From contig DASZWN010000001.1 of assembly GCA_035546575.1 (NCBI GenBank), positions 212,875-276,874 of the forward strand: a stretch of 64,000 bases of DNA, given 5' to 3'. This document shows, piece by piece, positions 6,980 to 35,381 of this stretch. A program made the position numbers and the translations under genes. Position 1 is the stretch's first letter. Each line of letters starts with the position of its first letter. The stretch comes from Minisyncoccota bacterium (GTDB taxonomy: Bacteria; Patescibacteriota; Minisyncoccia; Phycocordibacterales; SBAW01). The notes under the pieces were generated by a model. The model did no database searches, was not told the origin of the DNA, and worked only from the letters and a program-made list of their open reading frames with translations.

Positions 6980-7003
6980 GAGTCGATAGGGTAGAATAGA
7001 CAC

Positions 7004-7555
7004 ATGAACCCTCGAAACTTTTTTGTAGGAAGAGCAATCGGTTTTATTGTCGTTCTTGTGCTTGTAGGAGGCTACTTCCTTTTTAACAGCTACATATACC
7101 AGCAAAAGCAGGGGCCCGTGCTCGATTATAAAAACACTACCTACACTGTGGAGGGAGAAGTAGTGCAGCTTACCAATGGCATGTCAGAGGTGGAGGCTGC
7201 ACCAGGCTCGGCTTCCAAAGTTACAACCAAATATTTTGGCAACGAGGCAAAGGGCGACTTAAATGCCGACGGCATTCCTGACATCGCATTTCTGCTCACC
7301 CAAAACTCCGGTGGGAGCGGAACGTTTTACTATGTAGTGGCATCGCTCCAGGACAAAGACAGCGGGTACCTTGGCACCAACGCGGTCTTATTGGGCGACC
7401 GGATTGCTCCTCAGACTACTGAGATCAAAGACGGAGAGATTATCGTTAATTATGCCAACCGCGCACCAGGCGACCCTATGACTGCGCCACCGTCAGTCGG
7501 CGTTTCAAAATATCTGCGGGTCGACAACGGAGTTCTGGTCGAGACGGTGCAGTAA
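7004..7555 (+). CDS. Hypothetical membrane-anchored exported protein
   Basis: N-terminal TM helix then soluble domain; no recognisable motifs. Confidence 0.5.
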   Translation: MNPRNFFVGRAIGFIVVLVLVGGYFLFNSYIYQQKQGPVLDYKNTTYTVEGEVVQLTNGMSEVEAAPGSASKVTTKYFGNEAKGDLNADGIPDIAFLLTQNSGGSGTFYYVVASLQDKDSGYLGTNAVLLGDRIAPQTTEIKDGEIIVNYANRAPGDPMTAPPSVGVSKYLRVDNGVLVETVQ

Positions 7556-21896: not shown

Positions 21897-22766
21897 ATGA
21901 AAACAAGCACAGCTGCAATTGTCGTTATTGTCCTTCTGCTCCTGATTGGCGGCGGCTGGTGGTATTATGCTGGCAAGGCGCCGGCAACTACGACGCCTCC
22001 CACAACGGAGACTCCGCTCGCAACAACCGCATTTGCTTGCGACGCAGGCAAATCTATTGGCGCAACGTTTTACACCGGGCGCGCCGACATTGTACTGAGC
22101 GATGGCCGCACGCTTTCACTCCCGCAAACACAATCAGGCTCCGGTATCCGCTATGCTGCTACCGATGAGTCGGTGATCTTTTGGGGCAAAGGCAACACGG
22201 CTTTTGTAGAGGAAGGGGCTGATCAGCGTCAGACGTATACCGGCTGCATTCTTGTCTCGCCAGACCCGTCAAACACACTCAGCCAAATTTACGCAACCTC
22301 GACGCTTGGGTTTAGTTTGCGTACTCCGGCTGGTTACATGCCGCTCGCATACACCTATCAAGCGCTCGGGCCAAACAAGGGAATTAAAGGTGTAAAGTTT
22401 ACTATCCCGGCAACCTCGGCAACTGGCACCAACCTTTCTAAAGACACCTACATCAGTGTAGAAGAGCTCCCAAATTCAACTACCTGCTTAGCATCTGAGT
22501 TCCTGGAACCGGGCGCAAAAGCGATTACGTTTACCGATGCGGGCGTCGACTACTCGGCAGCAACGTCAAGCGACGCGGGTGCGGGCAACCTCTACGATGA
22601 GGCCGTATTCTCTATCCCGGGCACCAGCCCGTGCATTGCCGTGCGCTACTTTATCCACTCAACGCAGTTTGCTAATTATCCGGCAGGCAGCGTTGTCGAG
22701 TTTAGCCGCGAGGCGGTCATCAACGAGTTCGACGCAATCCGCCGCAGTCTGGTAATCGGCCGCTAG
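21897..22766 (+). CDS. Membrane-anchored protein with N-terminal MliC-like (lysozyme-inhibitor fold) domain, paralog A
   Basis: AFACDAGKSIGATFYTG...SGSGIRYAATDESVIFWGKGNTAFV resembles MliC domain; paralogous to 23477..24343. Confidence 0.55.
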   Translation: MKTSTAAIVVIVLLLLIGGGWWYYAGKAPATTTPPTTETPLATTAFACDAGKSIGATFYTGRADIVLSDGRTLSLPQTQSGSGIRYAATDESVIFWGKGNTAFVEEGADQRQTYTGCILVSPDPSNTLSQIYATSTLGFSLRTPAGYMPLAYTYQALGPNKGIKGVKFTIPATSATGTNLSKDTYISVEELPNSTTCLASEFLEPGAKAITFTDAGVDYSAATSSDAGAGNLYDEAVFSIPGTSPCIAVRYFIHSTQFANYPAGSVVEFSREAVINEFDAIRRSLVIGR

Positions 22767-22808: not shown

Positions 22809-23459
22809 GTGAGCCAAAAGTATCTATATATCGCAGCTATAGCGGTACTCCTCGCACTCGCGACCTTTGTGGGCCTGTATCTCCGTATCCAGTTTGAGAC
22901 CAGGCAGTATATCTATTCAAGCGTCGAGAGCGCACCCACAACGCAAGTGGCGCTGGTGCTTGGAGCGTCGGTGATGCGCAACGGTACGCTCTCGCCGGTC
23001 CTTGAGGAGCGGGTCGACAAAGCAGTTGAGCTCTATCGCATGCATAAAGTATCCAAAATTTTGATGACCGGCGACAACAGCACCATTGCCCACAACGAGG
23101 TAGAGCCGGTGCGCCGTTACTTGCTTGCGGCAGATGTTCGGCCGGAGGATATCTTTTTGGACCATGCAGGGTTTGATACCTACTCAAGTATGTATCGCGC
23201 ACGCGATGTCTTTGCAGTGACCTCGGTCACCATTGTGACGCAACCGTTCCACCTGCCGCGCGCGGTATATATTGCTAGAGAGCTCGGGCTTAATGCGGTG
23301 GGTATCGAGGCGGGGGAGCCGGGTAAATATCTGTACAACTACGCGCGCGAGGCGCCAGCTTCTATCAAGGCTGAGCTCGACCTCCTGTTTTACCGAATCC
23401 CCAAGTATTTAGGCCCTCAATTCCCTATAACCGGTACCGGTACCACCACTTGGGAGTAG
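22809..23459 (+). CDS. SanA/YdcF (DUF218) family protein
   Basis: N-terminal TM then DUF218 core (VALVLGASV...KILMTGDNST...FDTYSSMYRAR). Confidence 0.65.
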   Translation: MSQKYLYIAAIAVLLALATFVGLYLRIQFETRQYIYSSVESAPTTQVALVLGASVMRNGTLSPVLEERVDKAVELYRMHKVSKILMTGDNSTIAHNEVEPVRRYLLAADVRPEDIFLDHAGFDTYSSMYRARDVFAVTSVTIVTQPFHLPRAVYIARELGLNAVGIEAGEPGKYLYNYAREAPASIKAELDLLFYRIPKYLGPQFPITGTGTTTWE

Positions 23460-23476
23460 CTGTTATACTTAAGGGT

Positions 23477-24343
23477 ATGAACTCGATTAATCTTCGCGTT
23501 ATCTTTATCGGACTGTTTGCGATATTAGTACTTGGAGTTGGTGGGTTTTATCTGTGGAACAAGCTCGGAGCGCGCACGGTGCCGCCGCTCTCGTCGGTTG
23601 CCTATACCTGCGATGCTGGCAAAACAATACAAGCGGACTTTTATGAAAAGAGCGTCAAAATCGTACTCAGCGACGGGCGCGAGTTCTCGCTCCCGCAGAT
23701 GGTCTCGAGCGTAGGCGACCGCTACACCAACGCAGAAAAATCGATCGTGTTTGAGCGCGACGGCGACACCGCGCATGTGGGCGAGGGCTCATCGGAGATA
23801 CCAACCTACAGTAACTGCACCGCGGCGGGCAGCGAGGCAGCCTCGATGGGCACCTATACCTCAACCGCAGCATCATCGACGCCGGGCTTTACTGTAAAAT
23901 ATCCAAAAACATTCTCGCTCAACAGTGCGTATGTGAACGAGACCTTCCCTAAAAAGCCTATCAGCGGCATCAAGCTCACTGTCCCGGAGACGATGGCTAC
24001 CGGTACAAACCTCTCCAGTGACACAGGCCTCTCGGTAGAGTGGCTTCCGAATGCTCGTAACTGTACCGGCGATATTTTTGTAGCCGAAAATGTTAAAGCA
24101 CAAAAAGTAACCGAAAACGGCGTCAGTTACTCGGTAGCCACGACAAGCGGTGCAGGTGCGGGCAACCTCTACGAGGAGACCGTGTATGCTATCTCGGGCT
24201 CCAAGCCATGCACTGCCGTGCGCTACTTTGTACACTCAGGCAATATCGGCAATTATCCTGCGGGCACCGTGACCGAGTTCGACAGGGCAGGGCTCATGGC
24301 CCAGTTCGACAAAATCCGCCAGTCGCTCACGCTCAGCAACTAA
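23477..24343 (+). CDS. Membrane-anchored protein with N-terminal MliC-like domain, paralog B
   Basis: YTCDAGKTIQADFYEKSVKIVLSDGREFSLPQ...VGDRYTNAEKSIVFERDGDTAHV; same architecture and C-terminal domain as 21897..22766. Confidence 0.55.
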   Translation: MNSINLRVIFIGLFAILVLGVGGFYLWNKLGARTVPPLSSVAYTCDAGKTIQADFYEKSVKIVLSDGREFSLPQMVSSVGDRYTNAEKSIVFERDGDTAHVGEGSSEIPTYSNCTAAGSEAASMGTYTSTAASSTPGFTVKYPKTFSLNSAYVNETFPKKPISGIKLTVPETMATGTNLSSDTGLSVEWLPNARNCTGDIFVAENVKAQKVTENGVSYSVATTSGAGAGNLYEETVYAISGSKPCTAVRYFVHSGNIGNYPAGTVTEFDRAGLMAQFDKIRQSLTLSN

Positions 24344-24402: not shown

Positions 24403-24870
24403 TCAGATGTTGCCGTCGATCAGGTCGCGATGCAGGAACGTCAGCGCGTTGAAGCATGCGTTGCCGATCGACTTCCAGAACTTGCGCATCTTCTGCCGAC
24501 GGGCAAGCCGGAGCTCCTCGGCGGTTGGTATGTAGACCGTCGTCTTGCCCGAGATAATGTTCTCGCGAGTCCGACGCAGCACCTGCATGAGGTGCGAATG
24601 CGTCGTCTCCTTGGCATCGTTGAAGCTGGGGATGCTGTCGTAACGCAGCGGCCGGCCTTCGTTCGCTGTGGCGAGGATGGCCGGCCCCAGGTACATCACG
24701 CCCAGATTCCGCATGGTCTGCTCTGCGCAGGCCAGGTTGGGATTCCAGAAGTCACGGGCCCTGTATTGGAGCCAGTTGTCTTCGTTGCGGAGCTTGCCGA
24801 TGAGCTGGTCGATCTCGGCGAGCCCTGTCGGGGCAAAGGCGAGAACGGGGATAGTGCCGTCTGCAGCCAT
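24403..24870 (-). CDS. Hypothetical protein (155 aa) of unknown function
   Basis: AGGAGA SD 7 nt upstream of ATG at 24870; high GC; no recognisable motif. Confidence 0.5.
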   Translation of the reverse strand: MAADGTIPVLAFAPTGLAEIDQLIGKLRNEDNWLQYRARDFWNPNLACAEQTMRNLGVMYLGPAILATANEGRPLRYDSIPSFNDAKETTHSHLMQVLRRTRENIISGKTTVYIPTAEELRLARRQKMRKFWKSIGNACFNALTFLHRDLIDGNI

Positions 24871-24991
24871 GGATATTTCTCCTGTTTCGAGTTGCCGTTC
24901 AGTACAAAAAGTCTTGCTATACAGTACCGCAAAACGATGCAATGTCAATATATAGAAAATCCCGGCCGCTTGGTGTGCGGCCGGGGAAGGG

Positions 24992-25306
24992 TCATAAAAA
25001 ATTTTCGCTCGGTTTGTTTTTCTCCGACTCAGCCTTCAGCTTCTTGAGCATGGCCTGAGCCTTTTTCATTGCCGCCTCAAGGATCTTCATGGCCTCGTCG
25101 ACGACGGCTGCCGCCTGCTGGTAGGACATGTTGCCGCTGCTGCCGTAGGGCGCTTCGCCCCTTGCCTGGAGCAGATGGAACGCCCTCTGGCTGCTGTGCA
25201 AAAAGATGTCCTCAGCAGCCTGATCAATAAGATCGGGGCTTTGAACAACGAGCTCTTTGCCTGGCTTGGGTTTGTTGGGAAACAATTGGTAAACCTTCGC
25301 GCTCAC
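24992..25306 (-). CDS. Hypothetical protein (104 aa) with Lys/Ala-rich C-terminal helix
   Basis: GGAGG SD then GTG; C-terminus AMKILEAAMKKAQAMLKKLKAESEK predicted coiled. Confidence 0.4.
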   Translation of the reverse strand: MSAKVYQLFPNKPKPGKELVVQSPDLIDQAAEDIFLHSSQRAFHLLQARGEAPYGSSGNMSYQQAAAVVDEAMKILEAAMKKAQAMLKKLKAESEKNKPSENFL

Positions 25307-25379
25307 GATTCGCCTCCGTCTTACACTGTCTATTGTAGACAATACAGAAAAATATTCATGACGGCAAATAAAAAGTAGC

Positions 25380-25404
25380 CGCGCGAGGGAGTCCCTCGCG
25401 CGGT
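25380..25404 (-). terminator. Palindromic hairpin terminator (CCGCGCGAGGGAgtCCCTCGCGCGG) followed by T-run on minus strand
   Basis: Perfect 12-bp stem; serves the minus-strand genes 25406..25600 and upstream. Confidence 0.5.
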
Positions 25405-25405
25405 G

Positions 25406-25600
25406 TTACTGCTCTTCTACCCCAAAGATGAAGTAGAGTCCCTTTCGTGTCAGGTCGACCCAGATAACGAGCAGGGCGATCTGCAGGGCAACGATGCCCA
25501 CCTGTATGGCTGCTTCGCCCAAGCCCCAGGGGAGAGCCTGAGCCAGGTCTTGCTTGGTCTGCAAAACCTGCAGCCAAAAATAGTCCCATGCGTCGTTCAT
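25406..25600 (-). CDS. Small single-TM membrane protein (64 aa)
   Basis: GGGAGGAG SD before ATG; MNDAWDYFWLQV...VGIVALQIALLVIWV hydrophobic helix. Confidence 0.4.
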   Translation of the reverse strand: MNDAWDYFWLQVLQTKQDLAQALPWGLGEAAIQVGIVALQIALLVIWVDLTRKGLYFIFGVEEQ

Positions 25601-25713
25601 TGACTCCTCCCGATGTGCGTTCGATAGGCACTGTAGCAAAACTACAGTGATTTGCTACTAGGGTAGCAATTTGGCATAGTGCTCTGTGGAATAGTGGAGA
25701 AAAGGAGAGACGG

Positions 25714-26523
25714 ATGTACAACACAGCACACGTGTACGACCTGTCGTTCGTCGCTCCCACGCGGAAGCCACGGACAAAACCTCAGATCGTCTTTACGCTT
25801 GATGAGGAGCTCCTTAGCGAGCTCAATAACCGCCTACAACATCTGCTGCGCAGAGTAAACGCGGCAAGATACTGCGGAAGAGAGGTGCAGTTTTGGTATC
25901 CAACTCCAGACCTGTTCGGCCGCATCGAGTTTGGATTCGAGAAATGCGGATTAATGACCAAGCACGATGGCGATGTAAGCTTGCGGATCGAGTTGAGCGA
26001 GGAGATGCTATTCTGCTCTACTTTGACAATAAACCTGCTCGCGCATGCACTCATTGTGCCATTTGAGGGCCGCAAACTCTCAAACCGCCCTCAGCTGATC
26101 GACCTAGAGACTCTTTGCGATCGCGATCGGTTGCAAGGCTACGGCCATGACATAGGCGGCTATGTGTCGGGTGGAGTGAATGCCTGGCTCCGAAAGCAGG
26201 GAACGCAGGTTCCCGACGACAGGTACAGCATTCCTGTACCTGAGGAGGTTATTACCGCCATGCGCCACGCATGGTACGCGGTAGCAGCCGAGGATCAAAA
26301 ACGCTGGGCGAGCGAGTGCGGAGGGCGTATAGCAAACGACGGGCGCTTCATGCTCGAGTGCTTTGGGAATGCGTGCGACGTCGCAATCTATCCGGATAAT
26401 GCTGTCGCAGACGAGAAGGGTTCAGTCCCGTTCAGTTGCCACAACCTCGACCGCCCCGACCAGCAAATTACGCTGATCGCTGGCCTGGCAAAGTTGTGTG
26501 AGCTGGTTCGTAAAGAAGAGTAG
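25714..26523 (+). CDS. Hypothetical protein (269 aa)
   Basis: AAGGAGA SD 6 nt before ATG; Cys/His-containing, no family recognised. Confidence 0.55.
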   Translation: MYNTAHVYDLSFVAPTRKPRTKPQIVFTLDEELLSELNNRLQHLLRRVNAARYCGREVQFWYPTPDLFGRIEFGFEKCGLMTKHDGDVSLRIELSEEMLFCSTLTINLLAHALIVPFEGRKLSNRPQLIDLETLCDRDRLQGYGHDIGGYVSGGVNAWLRKQGTQVPDDRYSIPVPEEVITAMRHAWYAVAAEDQKRWASECGGRIANDGRFMLECFGNACDVAIYPDNAVADEKGSVPFSCHNLDRPDQQITLIAGLAKLCELVRKEE

Positions 26524-26532
26524 AAAATAACA

Positions 26533-26564
26533 GGCCGCCCTAGCGATAGGGCGGCCTTTCTTCT
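26533..26564. terminator. Bidirectional hairpin terminator (AGGCCGCCCtagcgatAGGGCGGCCT + TTCTTCT)
   Basis: Between convergent genes 25714..26523 and 26585..26881. Confidence 0.55.
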
Positions 26565-26584
26565 GCGGGGCAATTGTATGAACT

Positions 26585-26881
26585 TTAGTGCTTGCTCGGC
26601 GGCTGACCCCAGTCTTCCCCGAGTACGCCGCGAATAAACTCCTTCGTCCTGGCGAGCCGCATTGCGGTGCGGCCTTCCATCACGGCAACCTCAGCGGCGC
26701 TGAAGCCCCAGAATTCCCTCATGGCGTCGAGTTGCCGGCGCTGATGCTCGGCCGTGTCCTTGTGCCCAGCCTCTTCGTTGATAAGGTAGGCCGAGTAGTG
26801 GCTCATGTAATGATCCTCCTGCTCCTCAAGGGGCCAGGCCTTCATTTCCTTGAGAGTCACAAAACCTTGTGCGGTAGACAT
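26585..26881 (-). CDS. Hypothetical protein (98 aa)
   Basis: AAGGAG SD 7 nt before ATG at 26881. Confidence 0.5.
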   Translation of the reverse strand: MSTAQGFVTLKEMKAWPLEEQEDHYMSHYSAYLINEEAGHKDTAEHQRRQLDAMREFWGFSAAEVAVMEGRTAMRLARTKEFIRGVLGEDWGQPPSKH

Positions 26882-26950
26882 GCTGCGGCTCCTTTCGCTG
26901 CTCTAAACCCAATCTAGCAAAAACAGGGTGCTTTTGATAGGGTAGGAGCC

Positions 26951-27460
26951 ATGGACCCGGAAGCAATGCTAAAAGGGCGCATGGCCGAGGCTTTAGTTGA
27001 AGAGATGCTCAAAAAAGCGGGCAACACTGTGTATCGCTTTGGGTATGAATCTGTCATTCAAAATCTTGTACAAGCTGGCGAAGTATTTGACCGATATACA
27101 GAGGTGGGGGAGAAGCTTAGAGCCATTCCAGATTTTGTTGTAATCGACAAAAACGGTAGACCAGCGTTTGTAGAAGTAAAGTTCCGATGGAATTCTGAGA
27201 TCCACGCTGACGATGTGGCGCGCCTTGAAAAGATAGAAAAGTATTGGCGCGCCGCAGTAATCTTTGTTAATTGTATAGAAAAACCATTTTTTAGAATTTC
27301 AGAACCCCCGTATCTTTCAGCAGATAAGCTTCTGCAATTAAAACCGCTCACATCAATCTCAGGGTGGAATGTAACTCCTGAATTAATAGAAGAGTATGAA
27401 AGAGTGGCACAGAAATACTTTGCTCCGACGCTAGTTACTCCATCGCAGAAGGGAAAGTAG
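26951..27460 (+). CDS. PD-(D/E)xK nuclease superfamily protein (YraN/Mrr-cat/Hjc-like core)
   Basis: AEALVEEMLKKAGNTVYRF ... IPDFVVIDKNGRPAFVEVKFR = helix + D ... (E)VK catalytic pattern of YraN/Mrr-type endonucleases; AT-rich. Confidence 0.55.
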   Translation: MDPEAMLKGRMAEALVEEMLKKAGNTVYRFGYESVIQNLVQAGEVFDRYTEVGEKLRAIPDFVVIDKNGRPAFVEVKFRWNSEIHADDVARLEKIEKYWRAAVIFVNCIEKPFFRISEPPYLSADKLLQLKPLTSISGWNVTPELIEEYERVAQKYFAPTLVTPSQKGK

Positions 27461-27496
27461 TAAAATTCCCCGGATTTGATAGGGTAGAGACAAAAT

Positions 27497-28447
27497 ATGC
27501 TTGGAAAAGTGGAAAAAGTTGATCTACGTAAGGCGTGGCCTCATGAGGCCCTAGATTTTACACGCTGGCTTGCTGAAGAGGCAAATCTCCGCTTGCTCTC
27601 AGAAGAGCTTGGGATTGAATTGGTGCACCTTGAGACCGAGGCAGGTGTGGGACGTTACAATGTCGATATCTTGGCTGAGGAACTTGGATCAGGGAAAAAG
27701 ATTATTATTGAAAATCAACTAGAGATAACAAATCACGATCATTTGGGCAAATTGATCACTTATGCATCTGGATACGATGCAAATATGGTCATTTGGGTTG
27801 TACGGGATGCTCGCGAGGAACATAGACAAGCTATTGATTGGCTTAACGAGCATACCGACGAGAATCTCGCATTTTTCTTAGTACAGTTAGAGCTTTGGCA
27901 GATTGGGAATTCTCCTTTCGCGCCAAAATTCAATATTATTTCAAAACCTAATGATTGGGCAAAAGTGGTAAAACGTTCTTTTGAGGGAGGCGAAATAACG
28001 GAGACCAAAGCACAACAGCTTAGGTTCTGGAATGCCTTTCAAGAATATGCAAAGAAAGAGGGAGTTAATTTTAGGTTTGAAGAACCTCAACCTAAGCATT
28101 GGTTCAATATCTATCTCAGCACGCATTACGCTCTTATTTCTCTCTCCTTAAATTCTTTTGAGAGAGCAATCCGCACAGAGTTTTATATCCGCTCAAGTAA
28201 AGAACTATATACGTACCTCGAAGGACACCGCGAGACTATAGAAAAGGAGATAGGAGCAAAATTGGTGTGGATGCCACTTGAAGGGAAGAAAGCGAGTCGA
28301 ATAAAAATAGAACGTACGGGTGATATAGATGAAGAACGTAACTGGGAAGAGTATTTTGCATGGTGTTTAAAACAAGCTCAAGTATTTGCACGTGTATTTC
28401 CTAAATACATTAAGGAGTTTGATAAAAATAAGAAGTCTAGAAAATAA
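27497..28447 (+). CDS. Two-domain protein: N-terminal restriction-endonuclease-like domain (D...ENQLE) fused to C-terminal DUF4268
   Basis: GRYNVDILAEE...KKIIIENQLEITNHDHLGKLITYA then QQLRFWNAFQEYAKK...HWFNIYL...IKIERTGDIDEERNWEEYFAWCL matching DUF4268 pattern. Confidence 0.6.
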   Translation: MLGKVEKVDLRKAWPHEALDFTRWLAEEANLRLLSEELGIELVHLETEAGVGRYNVDILAEELGSGKKIIIENQLEITNHDHLGKLITYASGYDANMVIWVVRDAREEHRQAIDWLNEHTDENLAFFLVQLELWQIGNSPFAPKFNIISKPNDWAKVVKRSFEGGEITETKAQQLRFWNAFQEYAKKEGVNFRFEEPQPKHWFNIYLSTHYALISLSLNSFERAIRTEFYIRSSKELYTYLEGHRETIEKEIGAKLVWMPLEGKKASRIKIERTGDIDEERNWEEYFAWCLKQAQVFARVFPKYIKEFDKNKKSRK

Positions 28448-28995
28448 TGGACTTGCTAAAGAAGACCGGCACACATAGTGATAATCGAAGGAATGACAAC
28501 GCGGACAAGAAACAGCTTTTCCCCAAGGAAAAGCATCCGCATACTGCGAGCTACCATAAAGAACAGTGGGCTTTTATCTCTGACACCGGCTTGCGTGAGA
28601 ATATTGCTTACCAGATGCAGTACCTGGAGTTTTTAATTAACCTCTACAATGACTATCAGCTCTATCTCACACTCGAGTCTCTGCTATGCAAAGACATACT
28701 CGCCACAGTGGGCGGGGTAGTGGAGGCAGCACTTTTTGACATGCTCCAAGATGCCAAGACAAAAGCCGGTATGCCGATGGGTACAAGGACTGACTTCACC
28801 GCCCTCCTAGGGGAGGCGTATCACAGCTTTAACTTTATAGACAAAGATATGTGGCACTACTTCCACGAGCTGCGCAAAGTCCGCAATTACGTACACCTAA
28901 AAGCCGCTGATTTCCAAGAGCATACGGCCTATACAGTGGAAGAGGCCAACGAAGCCATAAAAAAGCTCGAACAGTTTCGGCAGCAATTTGTGTAG
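28447..28995 (+). CDS. Hypothetical protein (182 aa), start overlaps stop of upstream DUF4268 gene
   Basis: TAATGG overlap (operon with 27497..28447); no motif. Confidence 0.5.
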   Translation: MDLLKKTGTHSDNRRNDNADKKQLFPKEKHPHTASYHKEQWAFISDTGLRENIAYQMQYLEFLINLYNDYQLYLTLESLLCKDILATVGGVVEAALFDMLQDAKTKAGMPMGTRTDFTALLGEAYHSFNFIDKDMWHYFHELRKVRNYVHLKAADFQEHTAYTVEEANEAIKKLEQFRQQFV

Positions 28996-29058
28996 CGAAA
29001 AAACTCTGCCGGTGCTAGGCTAAATTCAAATTCCAAGCGTCCCATCCGATTTCCAAGT

Positions 29059-30690
29059 TTGAACCATATGAAAATCTCTAGAATAAAAGTAAAAAACTTT
29101 CGCTCTGTTAAGGAGGTAGAGATTACACCTTCGGACTTCAATGTTTTTGTTGGACAAAACAACCACGGTAAGACGAACTTCTTTGAGGCGTTAAACTGGT
29201 TTTTTAAAGGCCCCACCAAGGGCGAGGGACTTGATGTCATTCGCTATCGCGGTGCCAGTGAAGACGACGAAGTGATGGTTGAGGTTGAATTTTCCGGTGC
29301 ACAAGAGGGAGCACAGAAGATGAAGAATGAAGCGAACAAGACAAAAATCCTGGGCGTTGTCGGTGAAAGCGACACTATAACCGTGGTGCGTAGCAGTGCC
29401 ACAGATGCAAAAAAGCGGGTACTCTTAATCAATGGAGATGTGAAGAAAAATCCCACTGGATTTGATACTGCGCTCAATGATTTCTTGCCGTCATTTGAGT
29501 ACGTTAGTACACTGGCTAGTCCGCTTGACACCGTCAAGTACAAATCCAACACACCGATAGCGAACATGCTTTCGGGAGTACTATCGGCCATTCTTGAGCA
29601 AGACGAGAAATATGCTGAGTTCAAGAAGAAGTTTGATGAACTTTTTACCGATCCGGGTTCACGCGTCCACGTTGAACTCAATAAACTTAGTGGCGAAGTA
29701 AAGGCGTACCTTGTAAAACAGTTTCCTGACTGCGAAAAAGTGGTGTTCAGCGTTACAGCCCCTCTGTTTGAAGACCTCCTCAAGAGCTTTGACGCTGAGA
29801 TAGATGATGGCGTTTACACAACTGCGAGTGAAAAAGGAGACGGTATGCAGCGCGCGTTAATGCTCGCTATCATACAAACGTATGCCGATTTCCGACGCGA
29901 GCACGAAGAAACCAGCAAATACTTCCTTTTCTTCATTGACGAGGGAGAGCTTCATTTGCACCCGACGGCTCAAAGAAAACTCAAAAACGCCCTGTTTGAT
30001 CTTGCTCAGGGAGGTGATCAAATATTTCTCAATACCCATTCCTCCGTGCTTGTCTCTGAGGAAGCCGAGGGCCAGACAATTTATAAGGTGGAAAAAATGG
30101 ATAAACAGACGAGCATTATGCCCATCAAGACAGAAGAAAAGCCAAGTGTGGTGTACGAATTACTTGGCGGTAGCCCGGCAGATCTACTATTGCCGAGCAA
30201 CTTTCTAATCGTGGAGGGTAAAAGTGAGTATGAGTTTATTTCCCGTGTTACGTCACGTTTTTATAGCGGTCAAAAGCAAATACAGGTTATTTACGCGGAG
30301 GGCGACCACGGACGCCAGCGCGAATCAATGGACAGTATCAATAAGGCTTTTGTACCTCTTCATGCCAGTCCTGTCTACAAAGAACGGCTGGTGATCCTGT
30401 GCGATACACCGAACCGCACACGCACAGCTGACTTCGACGCCTTCAAGAGGGCATACAGCTATCTAGAGACGAACGAACAACTTTTTGTCATCCCCAATGA
30501 GCGTCTCGAAGAATACTATCCGGCGCCCTGGAAGAAGACTGTAGCGGAGAGCCAAGCCATGAACGGAGAAAAGAACAGGAAGCTTGATCTTGCCCGAGAA
30601 GTAGGAAGCAGCATCACAAAAGAGCAGTTTGAATCCGAAATGAGCATTATTTATGGTGCTCTTAAAGCATGTTGGAATAAGGCGTATTAA
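29059..30690 (+). CDS. OLD-family / AAA_15-type ABC ATPase with C-terminal Toprim-like domain (GajA/AriAB/class-1-OLD-like)
   Basis: MKISRIKVKNFRSV..FNVFVGQNNHGKTNFFEAL (Walker A), EKGDGMQRALMLA (signature), FLFFIDEGELHLHP (Walker B), LNTHSS (H-loop), C-terminal NFLIVEGKSEYEFI (Toprim Glu) and acidic patch LVILCDTP...ADFD. Confidence 0.65.
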   Translation: MNHMKISRIKVKNFRSVKEVEITPSDFNVFVGQNNHGKTNFFEALNWFFKGPTKGEGLDVIRYRGASEDDEVMVEVEFSGAQEGAQKMKNEANKTKILGVVGESDTITVVRSSATDAKKRVLLINGDVKKNPTGFDTALNDFLPSFEYVSTLASPLDTVKYKSNTPIANMLSGVLSAILEQDEKYAEFKKKFDELFTDPGSRVHVELNKLSGEVKAYLVKQFPDCEKVVFSVTAPLFEDLLKSFDAEIDDGVYTTASEKGDGMQRALMLAIIQTYADFRREHEETSKYFLFFIDEGELHLHPTAQRKLKNALFDLAQGGDQIFLNTHSSVLVSEEAEGQTIYKVEKMDKQTSIMPIKTEEKPSVVYELLGGSPADLLLPSNFLIVEGKSEYEFISRVTSRFYSGQKQIQVIYAEGDHGRQRESMDSINKAFVPLHASPVYKERLVILCDTPNRTRTADFDAFKRAYSYLETNEQLFVIPNERLEEYYPAPWKKTVAESQAMNGEKNRKLDLAREVGSSITKEQFESEMSIIYGALKACWNKAY

Positions 30691-30695
30691 AGGTC

Positions 30696-31964
30696 ATGGA
30701 TAAGAAAAAACTTAAAAAAATATTGAATGAAACAAAAGCCTGGTCAAATCAGTCTGACAGTCTTGTCGCTGTTCAAAAAACAGGAGGTGGATTAGAGAAG
30801 GATGTCCAAACAGCATTGGGTTGGAAAGGAGGTCGTGTCGTCTACGACCGTGTTAGAGGTTATAAAGTGCAAGTGGATGCAGCCTACCCAGACGTAAGTA
30901 GGCCTGAGGTGGTTGTATCTGTTACCTACACTGATCCGGACTTACGAGGTCATAGCAATGAAAATAAATTGCATCTGAAAGTGGGAGAGCTTGCCTTACT
31001 AAAATTTGCGCACCCTCATATAAAAGTCATTTTAGTTCTTGGAGGCTCTCAAGAGGCTTGGCTTGCCTATGTACTTAAGGCATTTGAATATTTTTTCGAC
31101 GAAGTAATTTGTCTATGGAGCGAGAACGGATTAGCTCGTCTAGCGGTTATTAAAGAAAATCACAAATCGGTAAAATTGAAACACGTCGATTTTTGGGAAC
31201 AGCTCAATATTGAATGGGGGAAAATTAAATTCTACACAGAAGCAGATTTTGTTATTCCCCACAGTCTCTTTCGATACAAGACGCTTGATGACTTTAGGAG
31301 CCAAAAACCAAAAGTTTTCCATCCTTCGTTAATAAAAAATGAAGTAGCCCGTCTATGTATGCAGAGGTCGAAAGATTATAGCGGTACCGAATGGGATTCA
31401 TACATCCAAGACCGATGGCATAACATTGAAATGTCGCGAAATTACTTTAACCCAATGGAGGCGTTGATAGAGATTTTGCTTACAGATTCCAAGTTAAAAT
31501 TTGAAGGAGGTGTGGCGCGAGATATTCCAGTTCCATCGTTTCTACACCAGCTTGGAATGAAGGGGACTCGTGTCTCGGAAGATTTTGTCCTTTTTTCCAA
31601 GAAGCTCAACAAGAAAGTTTATATTCAATGTAAATCATCTGGTGGCGGAAGAGAGCAACACGGTAAAAACATTCAAAATCGCACAAAAGAACAAATTACA
31701 CGTAGTATTCTATACAGAAGTTCGGTCAAAGAAGGAAAAATGTACCTAGAAGATAAGAATTTCTATTGGATTTCTATTTTAGATGGCAATTGGTCGATTA
31801 ACGGTAGGGAGCCTTTTAAATATATCCACATGTTGCAGATTGCTGGATACGACAAGATATACGGAGTCCAAGACTTAATCCTTGAGGATGGCTTGACTCC
31901 AAAAACAAAGAATAATCCCTTACTCGATCATCTAATAAATGATCTCGATTGTGAGTTAATTTAA
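30696..31964 (+). CDS. Putative nuclease (422 aa) with restriction-endonuclease-like PD-(D/E)xK motif in C-terminal half
   Basis: SEDFVLFSKKLNKKVYIQCKSS (D ... QCK as in Mrr-cat/type II REases); N-terminal half has a degenerate similar element (VQVDAAYPD...EVVVSVTY); 6 nt downstream of ATPase gene; converges on methyltransferase. Confidence 0.5.
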   Translation: MDKKKLKKILNETKAWSNQSDSLVAVQKTGGGLEKDVQTALGWKGGRVVYDRVRGYKVQVDAAYPDVSRPEVVVSVTYTDPDLRGHSNENKLHLKVGELALLKFAHPHIKVILVLGGSQEAWLAYVLKAFEYFFDEVICLWSENGLARLAVIKENHKSVKLKHVDFWEQLNIEWGKIKFYTEADFVIPHSLFRYKTLDDFRSQKPKVFHPSLIKNEVARLCMQRSKDYSGTEWDSYIQDRWHNIEMSRNYFNPMEALIEILLTDSKLKFEGGVARDIPVPSFLHQLGMKGTRVSEDFVLFSKKLNKKVYIQCKSSGGGREQHGKNIQNRTKEQITRSILYRSSVKEGKMYLEDKNFYWISILDGNWSINGREPFKYIHMLQIAGYDKIYGVQDLILEDGLTPKTKNNPLLDHLINDLDCELI

Positions 31965-34900
31965 GGTTTGCGAAATATTACGATAGACTCTCTGACTGGA
32001 ATTTTACCAAACTGCTTCATCTGTTGAGGACTATTTCCTTTCATTCTGGTAACGAATATTTTTTCTGCTTTGAATCCTACTTTTTCTGCAAGAAGAAGAA
32101 GTAAATGGTCAACAGGTACTACCACGCCGCCCCAGCGAGAGTTTCCGACCACAAAGGCTGCCTTCCCTCCCTTACGCATAACATCAAATATGTTTTTCAG
32201 GTTTTCCTCAAGGTCGGCAAAATAACCCGCAATCATTTGAGGTATTTTACTGTTGTTGCCATCAGTTAGTTCCATAGCAGAGATAAGCTTCTGTACTTCG
32301 GGTATAGACTCTGAAATATCGAGATCTAGGTCGCTATCCGTGTGAGATCTGAAAGTTGATCTAACAAGTGTCTTATATTCTTGTTGGCTTTTTACAAGCG
32401 ATAGTAAAGATAGCTCCGCTTTTTGTTGAGCTATATAGTTGTTTCTATTTAAATACGGAGGTGAGGTTATAACAAAGTCAATTGAATTTTTCTTAAGTTT
32501 GAATTTCTTCGCGTCTCCCAAGAATATTTGATGGCGGGAGTCGTTTCTCTTGGATTCTTTTGTCACAATTTCTATATCCTCAAGCATTTTGTTAATTTGC
32601 ACCTTAAATAACGGTAATATATCTGATCCAGGATTTACAATTTTTATATTTAATTTTTGGAGTCCTATACTATCTGGATTAAGCATGTAACGATAGTGCG
32701 ATCCATGTTTTCTAATTTGACTCACATCCTCCAATATTCCAATTAATCCCAAAAGAAGGAGATCCTGTTCCTGTCCTGAGAGAGCAGAATTGCTAATTTG
32801 ATCTTTAATTTGCTTGACTTGATTCCAGATCTGAAAAGAAAATGCCTTACTTAGGAACTCAGGGAAAAGATCTTCCTTTTTAGATTCTCTGCTTTCTACG
32901 TCTAAATTAGATAAGAACCCGTTTATTTTTTTGAAATTTTTTATATCCAAGGAAGATATTTTAATCTTGCTAACCCATATCATTAGCGGGGATATGTCAA
33001 AAGATATTGTATTAATATTTCTTTTTTTGCCTGTGAGTATGGTAGTTCCTGAACCTACAAAAGGATCAAGTATCGTAGCGTTTCTTTTTTTGTTTACGTT
33101 CAAGTGCTCTATAAGAAAATTTACCAATGGCTCAGAATAGCCTTGAGTGAAAGGAAACCACCGATGCACGGGTAGCTTTTTGTTTATTTGAAAAGTAACA
33201 GATCTGCGTAACTCCGGTTTATCTTCCTGCAGTTTTTGGTACTTCTTTATATCGATAGGGACAAATTTCTCTAGAGATGTTTTCTCACTTCCATACCTTT
33301 TTTCTTTTAAATTATTCTTAGTTGGTAAGGACTTTCTGTGAGAATTTGCAATATCATCTCTAATAAATTGATATTCTGTTGGGGAAAGTTTAAAGACTGA
33401 AGCCACAACATGGTCGAGCTTATCCCAACTCTTTTGATTTTCTGGATTTTTATATAGATCGGTAGTTATTTTTTGAGCTAAATTCCTTTGCTCACGATCA
33501 AACTGGGGCAGTCGAATTGATTGCAGATGATGTTTTAAGAGTCTAAACCAGCCACTATGGAGTTGTGTTCCGTTGTGTCGAAGTGCAAACTCCATTACTG
33601 GAGTGCTAAGTACTGCGCTCCAGAATTTTAGATCTGTTTCGCTCATTGCCCTATTGACCAAGGCGTAGCCGGAACCGATCGCAGTGTCTCCGGTTATGTC
33701 TGCCGCAAATTGAGAAGAAGGCATCATTTCTTTCACTAAGATTTTTGGTGTCTGAGGTAAATGTAAATTTTGGACTCGGCTAAACGCATACCAAGAGGCA
33801 TTTTTATCAAGATTCCTACCAGAGAGTAATTGCTTGTTAGATAATAAATATGCGTATATATTCGGAGCCATTTTTTTCAGGGTATTTTCTTCTATAACCT
33901 TAACTTTGCCCGTAGAAGAGATTTCATACGGATAAATTAACTTGTATTGTTCCCTTGAAATAAAGAGTCTTTTTATCTCCTCTCCTCCAACAAACGGCCT
34001 CAAAAGGTCTTGCTCTAAGTCTGTTTCGGCGTCTTTTTTCAACACAAAAACATCATTTTGGCCCGTGCGGAGACCTTGAAGAATGTTGGGGAATAAATGG
34101 CTAATTAAAGGAAGATTGGGGTTATTTATCTTTTGAATAATACTTTGAGCTTGATCGGTCGCTAAATTCCACGGAAACTTCTCTAAGATGTTAGTGTTTA
34201 AACTGAAAGTTTTGGATTTGTTTAGGTCGTTAGCAGATGTGATTCCTGTTGGAAAGTGGGTAACTGTAAACTTTTTTGCTGCCGGAAGCTTCGTAAAGGT
34301 AAGAACTGTGGTATAGGTTGTATGGTCTGGAAAGACTTGAGAATCTTTGAAGTCAATAATATTGAGTATTCTCACATCTTTTGCCAGTCGGGCGCATATA
34401 GCCTTTCCATATTCAGAATGCATGAATTTACTTGTGGTGATGTAACAACCAATTCCTCCATCAGTGAGACTTCTTATGGCATGTTCAATAAAAATTATAG
34501 ACAGGTCAAAATTCCCTGACGTTATATCCGGATACTTTTCCTTTATTAATCCGACGTAATTTTCTGATAGGTTCTGAGACCTAACATAGGGCGGATTTCC
34601 AATCAATATGTCGAACTTCTCGTTTTCGGATTCAGAGGAAAACAAAGACTCTTTTTGCAAAGAAAGCAGAGAATCAGAGTGTTGAATTTTAGCCTCCAGC
34701 TTAAGCGCATCATTCAATATTTTTGCAAACCTTGTCGATGTTTTGTCCACGTCATTTCCATGAAGAGATACGTCTTTACCAAAGAAGTCTCTTGCACTGG
34801 AAAGAAAAACTCCAGTACCACAAGCAATGTCTCCAACTTTCTGGACTTTTCGTCCTGTTCTGTGCAATTTATTCCAATGTTGCCACGCTGTTTGAGTAAC

Positions 34901-35152
34901 TTTGTCTGCCAGCCATTTTGGTGTGAATACTGCACCGGAATTTTTCTGTTCCTCACTAGACAACATTGATGTTCTCAGTGAAGCAAGGGCGTCTTCAATA
35001 CCGTGTATACTTATTAATTCTGAAAAGTTATTCAGATCTTGTTTGGATAGATCTTGTATTTCTCTTAACAGTCGAGGAGAAAGGCTCATCCCCTCTATAT
35101 TCGTTCGAGAGCTTTTAGGTCGATGGGGGAGGGTAGGAACGGATTTACTCAT
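31961..35152 (-). CDS. Two-module DNA methyltransferase: N-terminal gamma-class N6-adenine MTase with TaqI-like target-recognition domain, plus C-terminal second MTase module
   Basis: Module 1: VGDIACGTGVFL (motif I), ILIGNPPYV (motif IV), TaqI-C-like region (LLRPFVGGEEIKR..., WYAFSRVQNL). Module 2: ILDPFVGSGTTIL (FxGxG) and FVITSPPYLNR (SPPY). Start taken at ATG 35152 (TTG 35158 used by ORF track); TATAAT 7 nt upstream. Confidence 0.75.
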   Translation of the reverse strand: MSKSVPTLPHRPKSSRTNIEGMSLSPRLLREIQDLSKQDLNNFSELISIHGIEDALASLRTSMLSSEEQKNSGAVFTPKWLADKVTQTAWQHWNKLHRTGRKVQKVGDIACGTGVFLSSARDFFGKDVSLHGNDVDKTSTRFAKILNDALKLEAKIQHSDSLLSLQKESLFSSESENEKFDILIGNPPYVRSQNLSENYVGLIKEKYPDITSGNFDLSIIFIEHAIRSLTDGGIGCYITTSKFMHSEYGKAICARLAKDVRILNIIDFKDSQVFPDHTTYTTVLTFTKLPAAKKFTVTHFPTGITSANDLNKSKTFSLNTNILEKFPWNLATDQAQSIIQKINNPNLPLISHLFPNILQGLRTGQNDVFVLKKDAETDLEQDLLRPFVGGEEIKRLFISREQYKLIYPYEISSTGKVKVIEENTLKKMAPNIYAYLLSNKQLLSGRNLDKNASWYAFSRVQNLHLPQTPKILVKEMMPSSQFAADITGDTAIGSGYALVNRAMSETDLKFWSAVLSTPVMEFALRHNGTQLHSGWFRLLKHHLQSIRLPQFDREQRNLAQKITTDLYKNPENQKSWDKLDHVVASVFKLSPTEYQFIRDDIANSHRKSLPTKNNLKEKRYGSEKTSLEKFVPIDIKKYQKLQEDKPELRRSVTFQINKKLPVHRWFPFTQGYSEPLVNFLIEHLNVNKKRNATILDPFVGSGTTILTGKKRNINTISFDISPLMIWVSKIKISSLDIKNFKKINGFLSNLDVESRESKKEDLFPEFLSKAFSFQIWNQVKQIKDQISNSALSGQEQDLLLLGLIGILEDVSQIRKHGSHYRYMLNPDSIGLQKLNIKIVNPGSDILPLFKVQINKMLEDIEIVTKESKRNDSRHQIFLGDAKKFKLKKNSIDFVITSPPYLNRNNYIAQQKAELSLLSLVKSQQEYKTLVRSTFRSHTDSDLDLDISESIPEVQKLISAMELTDGNNSKIPQMIAGYFADLEENLKNIFDVMRKGGKAAFVVGNSRWGGVVVPVDHLLLLLAEKVGFKAEKIFVTRMKGNSPQQMKQFGKIPVRESIVIFRKP

Positions 35153-35381
35153 AGGCAAATTATACTACCTCTACCACGTTCGTGGGAACACGAAACTGTG
35201 GACATACTTAATTACTTGCTTTAGGATGAGAGGCGCATTGAACCGTCTCGGATTCTCTTTATGTATCTCCCTAAGCTTTTCGATTTCTGGTCCAATTATC
35301 GCAAACACCGTTTCAAACGAGGGGGAGATTAATCCTGCCTTAAGTCCAAGTCTGGACTTCTAAATTTGCTATACTAGTGGT

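Follow-up and report, generated by a model that had tools for sequence, protein, structure and literature searches.

The locus described here raises the question whether three small neighbouring genes, two of which encode proteins with nuclease folds, form one dedicated defence system or were brought together independently in a defence island. The genes are located in a stretch of 64,000 nucleotides from a Minisyncoccota bacterium (GenBank assembly GCA_035546575.1, contig DASZWN010000001.1, positions 212,875 to 276,874 of the forward strand), which in its full length is referred to as the window. Gene A (26951-27460, 169 amino acids), gene B (27497-28447, 316 amino acids) and gene C (28447-28995, 182 amino acids) all lie on the forward strand, and an earlier note made from the sequence alone had described them as a three-gene nuclease cluster with B and C as a translationally coupled pair. 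Coordinates and orientation of the open reading frames were confirmed, and because database searches returned 149 homologues for A, more than 7,800 for B and 140 for C, all three are regarded as real genes and not as chance reading frames. Likewise, the overlap between B and C exists as described: at the junction TAATG (28445-28449, forward strand) the TAA stop of B (28445-28447) and the ATG of C (28447-28449) have one base in common, and C is therefore read as a distal cistron. Nevertheless, conserved linkage of A, B and C is absent. Gene B belongs to an already catalogued candidate defence family, A is a small stand-alone protein of a well-known nuclease superfamily by its conserved residues, and C represents a family missing from the annotation libraries, for which a HEPN-like fold is predicted.

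Linkage of the three genes

Neighbourhoods were compared at 32 genome loci with a relative of C plus eight contexts of its closest relatives (about 40 C loci in total), at 85 sampled loci with a relative of B, including those of its three nearest relatives and 80 loci on viral contigs, and at 80 metagenome loci with a relative of A (L038-L117). Directly upstream of C, a relative of B or A was found at none of the 32 genome loci by tblastn and profile hidden Markov models; at one of them (L004) a relative of B lies 6 kb from that of C, and relatives of A occur in 1 of the approximately 40 C loci. The 85 B loci, whose neighbouring genes are variable, contain no relative of C or A, and the 80 A loci no relative of C. 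Two A loci (L081/L082) hold a relative of B, with identical hit statistics, so that they probably represent the same sequence from two samples. Partial recurrences of the trio are limited to this combination of A with a B-family gene, to a B-family gene with C (L200/L201) and to an A-like gene, a GmrSD gene and C (L013). Moreover, the nucleotide similarity of the window to every other locus ends at the borders of the open reading frames and crosses no gene junction, and tight TAATG-like junctions also tie homologues of C to unrelated upstream genes at other loci.

The co-occurrence check proposed in the earlier note, i.e., whether C always follows a nuclease-DUF4268 gene, yielded one pair in about 40 C loci, with a different lineage of B, and no C in the 85 B loci. 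Homologues scattered without conserved linkage are essentially the outcome that the note itself had named as speaking against its proposal, and neither a functional three-gene cluster nor a dedicated B-C pair is therefore upheld. The suggested connection to the OLD-like genes downstream fared no better, as a relative of OLD is present in none of the 32 genome C loci and in 2 of the 80 A loci; at one metagenome C locus, an AAA_15 ATPase is encoded two genes upstream.

Domains, folds and relatives of the proteins

The nuclease-DUF4268 pairing in B was said to lack an assigned function, but B is already catalogued as the PADLOC candidate PDC-S11. Three models of this candidate match it over the full length (E = 7e-119 to 3e-81), the best being PDLC04911 (E = 7.2e-119), which aligns residues 2-307 of 316 with profile positions 5-314 of 318. 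The fusion as such was recognised correctly. Pfam DUF4268 (PF14088) covers residues 174-305 with 90.2 bits against a cut-off of 27 (E = 1.5e-25), and the AlphaFold (AF2) model, with a predicted local distance difference test score (pLDDT) of 80.6, comprises two domains joined by a disordered linker (153-166). Its modelled N-terminal domain (about residues 1-150) has the alpha-beta-beta-beta-alpha-beta core fold of PD-(D/E)xK nucleases, with predicted helices at 18-38 and 81-92 and strands at 42-51, 54-62, 68-74 and 95-102, and Foldseek, at probabilities close to 1.0, matched this domain to SfsA (4dav), EcoT38I (7edb) and Can2 (8bao). Residues E17, E48, D57 and E72-N73-Q74 are invariant in the family, and the D...ENQLE motif noticed earlier, present in B as E72-N73-Q74-L-E76, is indeed a family signature. 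DUF4268 of B (residues 168-316) is predicted to adopt a type III secretion chaperone/YbjN-like fold, the Foldseek matches being ExsC (3kxy), YbjN (6vu7), AmyR, CesT and a CdiI immunity protein; this modelled secretion-chaperone-like fold is counted among the new elements.

In its full-length profile match, the lack of an obligate partner and its position among restriction-modification genes, B resembles most sampled members of PDC-S11, which PADLOC lists as a single-gene candidate and thus as a candidate only; it differs by the overlapping HEPN-like gene that follows, which has no counterpart in the 85 other family loci. The loci of its three nearest relatives (63-64% identity) are likewise placed beside restriction-modification genes and contain neither C nor A. 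The same layout of a nuclease domain and DUF4268 is found in MdgA and MdgB, each of which protects Escherichia coli as a single gene from phage T4 but gives no protection from the unmodified T4-GT7; modified T4 DNA is degraded by purified MdgA, an activity that the variant E77A lacks (PMC12366544). Both proteins are widespread across phyla. In relatives of B with an N-terminus 4-5 residues longer, the invariant E72 would be numbered E76-E77; the catalytic glutamate on which MdgA depends is E77. Compared by domain layout only, kinship between B and MdgA is a lead. DUF4268 has further been described in fusion with the type IV enzymes GmrSD (PMC4619093), with which B has the accessory domain alone in common, since Pfam matches to DUF262 (GmrS) and DUF1524 (GmrD) are missing from it.

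Genes of the B family are also common on viral or prophage contigs (IMG/VR, L118-L197), with at least 80 loci at 31-58% identity. Genes of 180-190 amino acids downstream of these viral relatives were considered as divergent analogues of C and rejected: with unfiltered searches at E = 10, none was matched by the profile of C, and in sequence they do not resemble it.

Gene C has no match in Pfam, NCBIfam, PADLOC, PHROGs or the PDB sequences. To this extent, the description of C as a protein without recognisable domain stands; it does not extend to structure, where a HEPN-like fold is recognisable. The structure prediction suggested for C gave a confident, all-helical AlphaFold model (pLDDT 86.9, predicted template modelling score 0.84), and 28 of the 29 top Foldseek matches in the PDB are annotated as HEPN or HEPN-MNT/HepT toxin-antitoxin proteins (8yuf, 7bxo, 7ae8, 5yep), the highest probability being 1.0 and the target-normalised TM-scores ranging from 0.4 to 0.63. 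In 25 close homologues, R143, R146, N147 and H150 (LRKVRNxVH) are invariant, as are E93 and a block at 52-82; by this conservation, R143-K-V-R146-N147-Y-V-H150 (28873-28896, forward strand) is a candidate HEPN-type active-site motif. A profile search of 1.84 billion representatives enlarged the family to 463 related clusters of 50%-identity representatives, and among 75 divergent relatives H150 is still invariant, with R146 and E93 conserved in at least 90%. The HEPN signature consists of Rx4-6H, a polar residue (N, D or H) after the arginine and an upstream acidic residue (PMC3710099), the latter being represented in C by E93. As C agrees with this signature except in spacing, it is therefore called HEPN-like and considered a new family of a known superfamily. 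Matches to the HEPN clan do occur among its relatives, i.e., DUF4145 in 2 of the 25 close homologues (0.018) and in 4 of the 75 divergent ones (best 2.3e-5), and HepT-like and HepT-like_2 in one each; C itself has no significant match to a sequence model of the clan, and a PDB profile search remained empty. The family is mainly found in bacteria of the candidate phyla radiation (CPR). Among 2.9 million viral contigs no relative of C was detected, and Foldseek returned no credible counterpart from the viral structures, so that an origin of C in phages or in anti-defence lacks support.

The genes beside relatives of C are strikingly varied. Directly upstream, PDDEXK_1 was found at five loci and GmrSD, NYN and AAA_21 ATPases at three each, in addition to NERD, TdeIII, Fic, NucS-C, YhcG-C, a methyltransferase-type protein and an ABC transporter; directly downstream, GmrSD (four loci), SF1 helicases, HsdM and HNH occur. 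The closest relatives of C add ResIII/RE_endonuc, PDDEXK_4, DUF2779 and GmrSD-HNH to these neighbours. Eight of the 32 genome C loci contain GmrSD-like genes, compared with none of the 80 A loci, which are of similar total length (Fisher p = 2e-5); the 80 B loci on viral contigs lack them as well. At 10 of 31 loci the upstream gene ends at most 3 nucleotides from the start codon of C, often as TAATG or TAAATG. C is thus a small, conserved gene that time and again forms the last cistron after DNA nucleases of unrelated families. The same arrangement has been reported for HEPN genes, of which at least 16 clades are linked to restriction-modification, and was interpreted there by analogy with PrrC (PMC3710099).

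Compared with these restriction-linked HEPN proteins (DUF4145-like clades, PrrC/RloC), C is alike in its predicted helical fold, the succession of R, N and H, the upstream acidic residue, the proximity to restriction nucleases and the weak DUF4145/HepT-like matches of its divergent members. It differs by the absence of a family model and by the distance between R and H, and as a stand-alone protein of 182 amino acids it lacks an N-terminal ATPase or anticodon-nuclease part. The HEPN-MNT pairs (HepT-MntA) provide the best structural matches, i.e., the four PDB entries named above with probabilities of 0.9-1.0; still, sequence similarity to them is undetectable, and no nucleotidyltransferase antitoxin gene was listed when the genes immediately beside C in the window and beside its relatives were scanned for families, or in the Pfam-annotated metagenome loci.

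For gene A, the earlier note had pointed to a helix-PD...FVEVKFR core, and an alignment of 28 family members confirmed it, with E13 in the first helix, P60-D61 and E75-V-K77-F-R79 invariant. Its classification as a YraN/Mrr/Hjc-type endonuclease holds for the PD-(D/E)xK core and fails for membership in YraN/UPF0102, as A reaches 15.5 bits against UPF0102 of Pfam (cut-off 23.6) and 13 bits against YraN of NCBIfam (cut-off 81). Sub-threshold matches of the family extend over the PD-(D/E)xK clan, with VRR_NUC in 15 of the 28 members (best 2.5e-5), TnsA-N in nine, UPF0102 in three and Hjc in one. Since the YraN/UPF0102 scores are below threshold and matches to VRR_NUC and TnsA-N are more common, A is treated as a small nuclease-fold protein of the superfamily and not as YraN; by its invariant E, PD and ExK columns and the clan-wide weak matches it is a member of the PD-(D/E)xK superfamily. 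With YraN/UPF0102, VRR-NUC, TnsA-N and Hjc it has the E...PD...ExK core at minimal size in common, but A stays below every curated threshold, is prolonged at its C-terminus by a conserved stretch of about 60 residues and belongs to a family largely restricted to CPR bacteria. Searches of the PDB with the sequences of A, B and C and with three profiles brought up nothing of relevance, the matches of A to beta-trefoil proteins being short chance hits.

The genes flanking relatives of A are highly variable, the largest neighbour cluster comprising 10 of the 73 loci over which neighbours were clustered, and include ribosomal protein S7, PolA, methyltransferases and conjugation proteins. This cluster, the commonest neighbour, is a protein of about 88 amino acids, encoded directly downstream at seven loci; it probably corresponds to the ArsR-type winged-helix domain, which is the commonest Pfam match among the neighbours (7 of 104). 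At L098 (5549-9814), a relative of OLD with 45% identity to that of the window lies directly downstream of the relative of A, inside a type I restriction-modification system, where it separates HsdM from HsdS.

Proposed function and competing explanations

The explanation favoured with moderate confidence starts from a defence island in a Candidatus Paceibacterota genome whose genes were shuffled independently. In this setting, B would be an autonomous enzyme of the PDC-S11 type, whose PD-(D/E)xK domain would cut DNA by means of D57 and E72-x-Q74 and whose DUF4268, with its secretion-chaperone/YbjN-like fold, would most likely supply target recognition. By analogy with MdgA, MdgB and the GmrSD-DUF4268 fusions, it probably acts alone as a restriction enzyme, and its mode of action is probably type IV-like, with DNA that is modified or foreign in some other way as the target. 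Gene C would be translated as the last cistron behind B and hence co-expressed with it. Following the PrrC model of HEPN genes attached to restriction systems, its product would most likely serve as a metal-independent ribonuclease-type second line of defence or as an abortive-infection effector, employing E93, R146, N147 and H150, and its activity might be restrained by, or triggered through, the neighbouring nuclease. Gene A, expressed from a start signal of its own, would encode another small PD-(D/E)xK nuclease that stands apart from B and C and lacks a fixed partner. Shown by the analysis are the assignments of domains and folds, the patterns of conservation, the absence of conserved linkage and the low GC content; the biochemical activities of the three proteins, including the ribonuclease activity of C, as well as any cross-talk between B and C, are what we infer.

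Several observations weigh against this explanation. In B, the invariant Q74 occupies the usual position of the catalytic lysine, for which K85, conserved in at least 90% of the family, could substitute, and MdgA lacked homology to known defences according to its authors (PMC12366544). For C, the Foldseek E-values are weak (0.07-1) despite the high probabilities. Furthermore, R146-N147-x-x-H150 lies outside the canonical Rx4-6H with a spacing of 3 instead of 4-6 residues between R and H; R143-x6-H150 would fit, but R143 is kept among the close homologues only. At L200/L201, a B-family DUF4268 gene is placed directly upstream of a relative of C, the only such pair in about 40 other C loci, with identities of 53% to B and 80% to C and with no A present; this pair does not simply reflect the same operon by descent, because the nearest relatives of B lack C. 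Besides, the order of the trio is repeated at L013 (445-3590), where a distant A-like gene, 29% identical and with its motifs intact, is followed by GmrSD (598 amino acids) and then by a relative of C.

The pair at L200/L201 is part of what speaks for B and C as a two-component module, in which C would be a promiscuous partner, such as an antitoxin, immunity protein, regulator or sensor, that silences B until infection or directs it. The one-base overlap of stop and start, the abutment of C to unrelated upstream nucleases at 10 of 31 loci, its enrichment beside GmrSD and its conservation (44-83% identity), which by far exceeds that of its partners, are in line with such a role. Hyper-promiscuous partner domains exist, e.g., the Panacea/PanA antitoxins, small conserved proteins beside many unrelated toxic partners. 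The resemblance of C to them lies in the varied partners; it has a HEPN-like, catalytic-looking motif and, by prediction, not an antitoxin fold. The module is nevertheless held to be unlikely, though it is the strongest of the rivals to the autonomous nuclease with an add-on. All 85 sampled loci of the B family lack C, PADLOC lists the family as a single-gene candidate, and C also occurs without an adjacent nuclease or behind an ABC transporter or lipase gene. Moreover, it is difficult to see how a single fold could bind partners as different as these, and the conserved R/N/H/E set of C resembles a catalytic site and not a binding surface. According to another rival, C has no functional relation to its neighbours and borrows the expression of the upstream gene, either as a small gene that is selfish or hitch-hikes or as a helical protein of unrelated kind. 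The variety of partners, which includes non-defence genes, and the DNA similarity that ends at the borders of the reading frames speak for it. This is judged rather improbable in view of the strong purifying selection on catalytic-looking residues across the 463 clusters and of neighbourhoods significantly richer in defence nucleases than A loci from similar metagenomes; the absence from viral contigs and the lack of visible transposase-type features point in the same direction.

Least credible of all is a single three-gene system of A, B and C, or of A, a variable nuclease and C, which is rated as very improbable. The genes are co-directional and closely spaced, yet A loci lack C and contain B twice, probably as one sequence, relatives of A are nearly missing from C loci, the neighbours of A are as diverse as ribosomal protein S7, PolA and ArsR-type regulators, and the recurring B-C pair has no A. 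The idea is kept alive only by L013 and by a 13-nucleotide element upstream of both A and B (see below), which likewise precedes an unrelated membrane protein gene at 7004. A broader proposal is offered tentatively, as a possibility that is doubtful in its full extent: the C family may be a new and widespread accessory defence module of atypical R-N-x-x-H HEPN-like proteins behind many DNA nucleases (GmrSD, PDC-S11/DUF4268, PDDEXK_1, NERD, ResIII), which couples DNA restriction to a back-up or checkpoint at the RNA level, with small A-like genes sometimes as a third component, as in the window and at L013.

With B read as an autonomous nuclease, C as a HEPN-like add-on and A as independent, a three-gene nuclease system that looked plausible need not be catalogued as a new defence system. 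PDC-S11 is already catalogued and the linkage of HEPN genes to restriction has been known since 2013, so that the island is ordinary in kind. By analogy, the middle gene would connect PDC-S11 to the experimentally supported restriction of modified phage DNA by DUF4268 nucleases. The useful new lead is C, an unannotated family with a predicted HEPN-like fold directly behind unrelated restriction nucleases, mainly in CPR bacteria; new are its atypical R-N-x-x-H and, in these genomes, its preferred position beside nucleases, type IV-like ones among them. If C acts as a ribonuclease back-up or regulator, the prediction of layered restriction and HEPN defence from 2013 would extend to CPR bacteria and type IV-like enzymes, and annotation pipelines would gain a family that is now missed.

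The surrounding island and its flanks

The defence-island setting and the OLD-like and restriction-modification genes that the earlier note saw downstream are present. The low-GC island (26951-35158) comprises A, B and C, an OLD-family ATPase-Toprim gene (29059-30690; PADLOC Old, E = 3e-62), a gene for a 422-amino-acid protein without a match in any library (30696-31964), which starts 5 nucleotides after the OLD gene, and on the minus strand a gene for a two-domain DNA methyltransferase of 1065 amino acids (31961-35158; Pfam Eco57I/N6_Mtase and N6_N4_Mtase, Alw26I/Eco31I-like; PADLOC MTase_II). The GC (guanine plus cytosine) content is 0.38-0.475 in all six genes (about 26.95-35.2 kb) compared with 0.53-0.59 in the flanking genes. 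Low GC and defence-type content together characterise this stretch as an acquired island of defence-type genes, and on balance the trio is probably the left part of a horizontally acquired mosaic, the genes of which are independently mobile modules and not one system. A search for flanking repeats, tRNA and integrase genes revealed no convincing direct-repeat pair and no adjacent tRNA gene at the island borders. The gene of the 422-amino-acid protein converges on that of the methyltransferase with an overlap of 4 nucleotides; its product is probably the cognate restriction enzyme of the methyltransferase or else a partner of OLD.

The 13-nucleotide element TTTGATAGGGTAG is found at 26933-26945, ending 5 nucleotides before the ATG of A, and in an identical second copy at 27475-27487, ending 9 nucleotides before the ATG of B (both on the forward strand); the second copy suggests a separate start signal for each of the two genes. 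The shorter form (T)TGATAGGGTAG ends 4-9 nucleotides before the ATG of A, of B, of the unrelated membrane protein gene at 7004-7555 (site at 6983-6994 of the window) and of two further genes, which lie upstream of C relatives in other CPR genomes (L001, 7122-7133; L014, 7273-7284). A common operator of A and B was considered and rejected, as the element is also placed before the gene of the membrane protein and relatives of A show no conservation of it in their upstream regions. It is more likely a start signal of the host, and (T)TGATAGGGTAG may be a promoter of leaderless transcripts, with TAGGGT fitting TANNNT, or a ribosome-binding signal of the lineage.

Just left of the island, four open reading frames (24403-26881) have nothing above threshold in Pfam or NCBIfam; three of them gave weak matches only (DUF6197, RecC_C, phrog_762, phrog_1378) and the fourth, of 269 amino acids, none. 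A perfect 11-bp hairpin resembling a bidirectional terminator is located at 26532-26557, and these frames together with the hairpin could be the remnant of a mobile element beside the island. Further to the left, two paralogous secreted or membrane-anchored proteins of 289 (21897-22766) and 297 amino acids (23450-24343) are encoded on either side of a gene for 216 amino acids, and have the same layout with an N-terminal anchor, the motif CDAGK...VLSDGR...LPQ and a similar C-terminal half.

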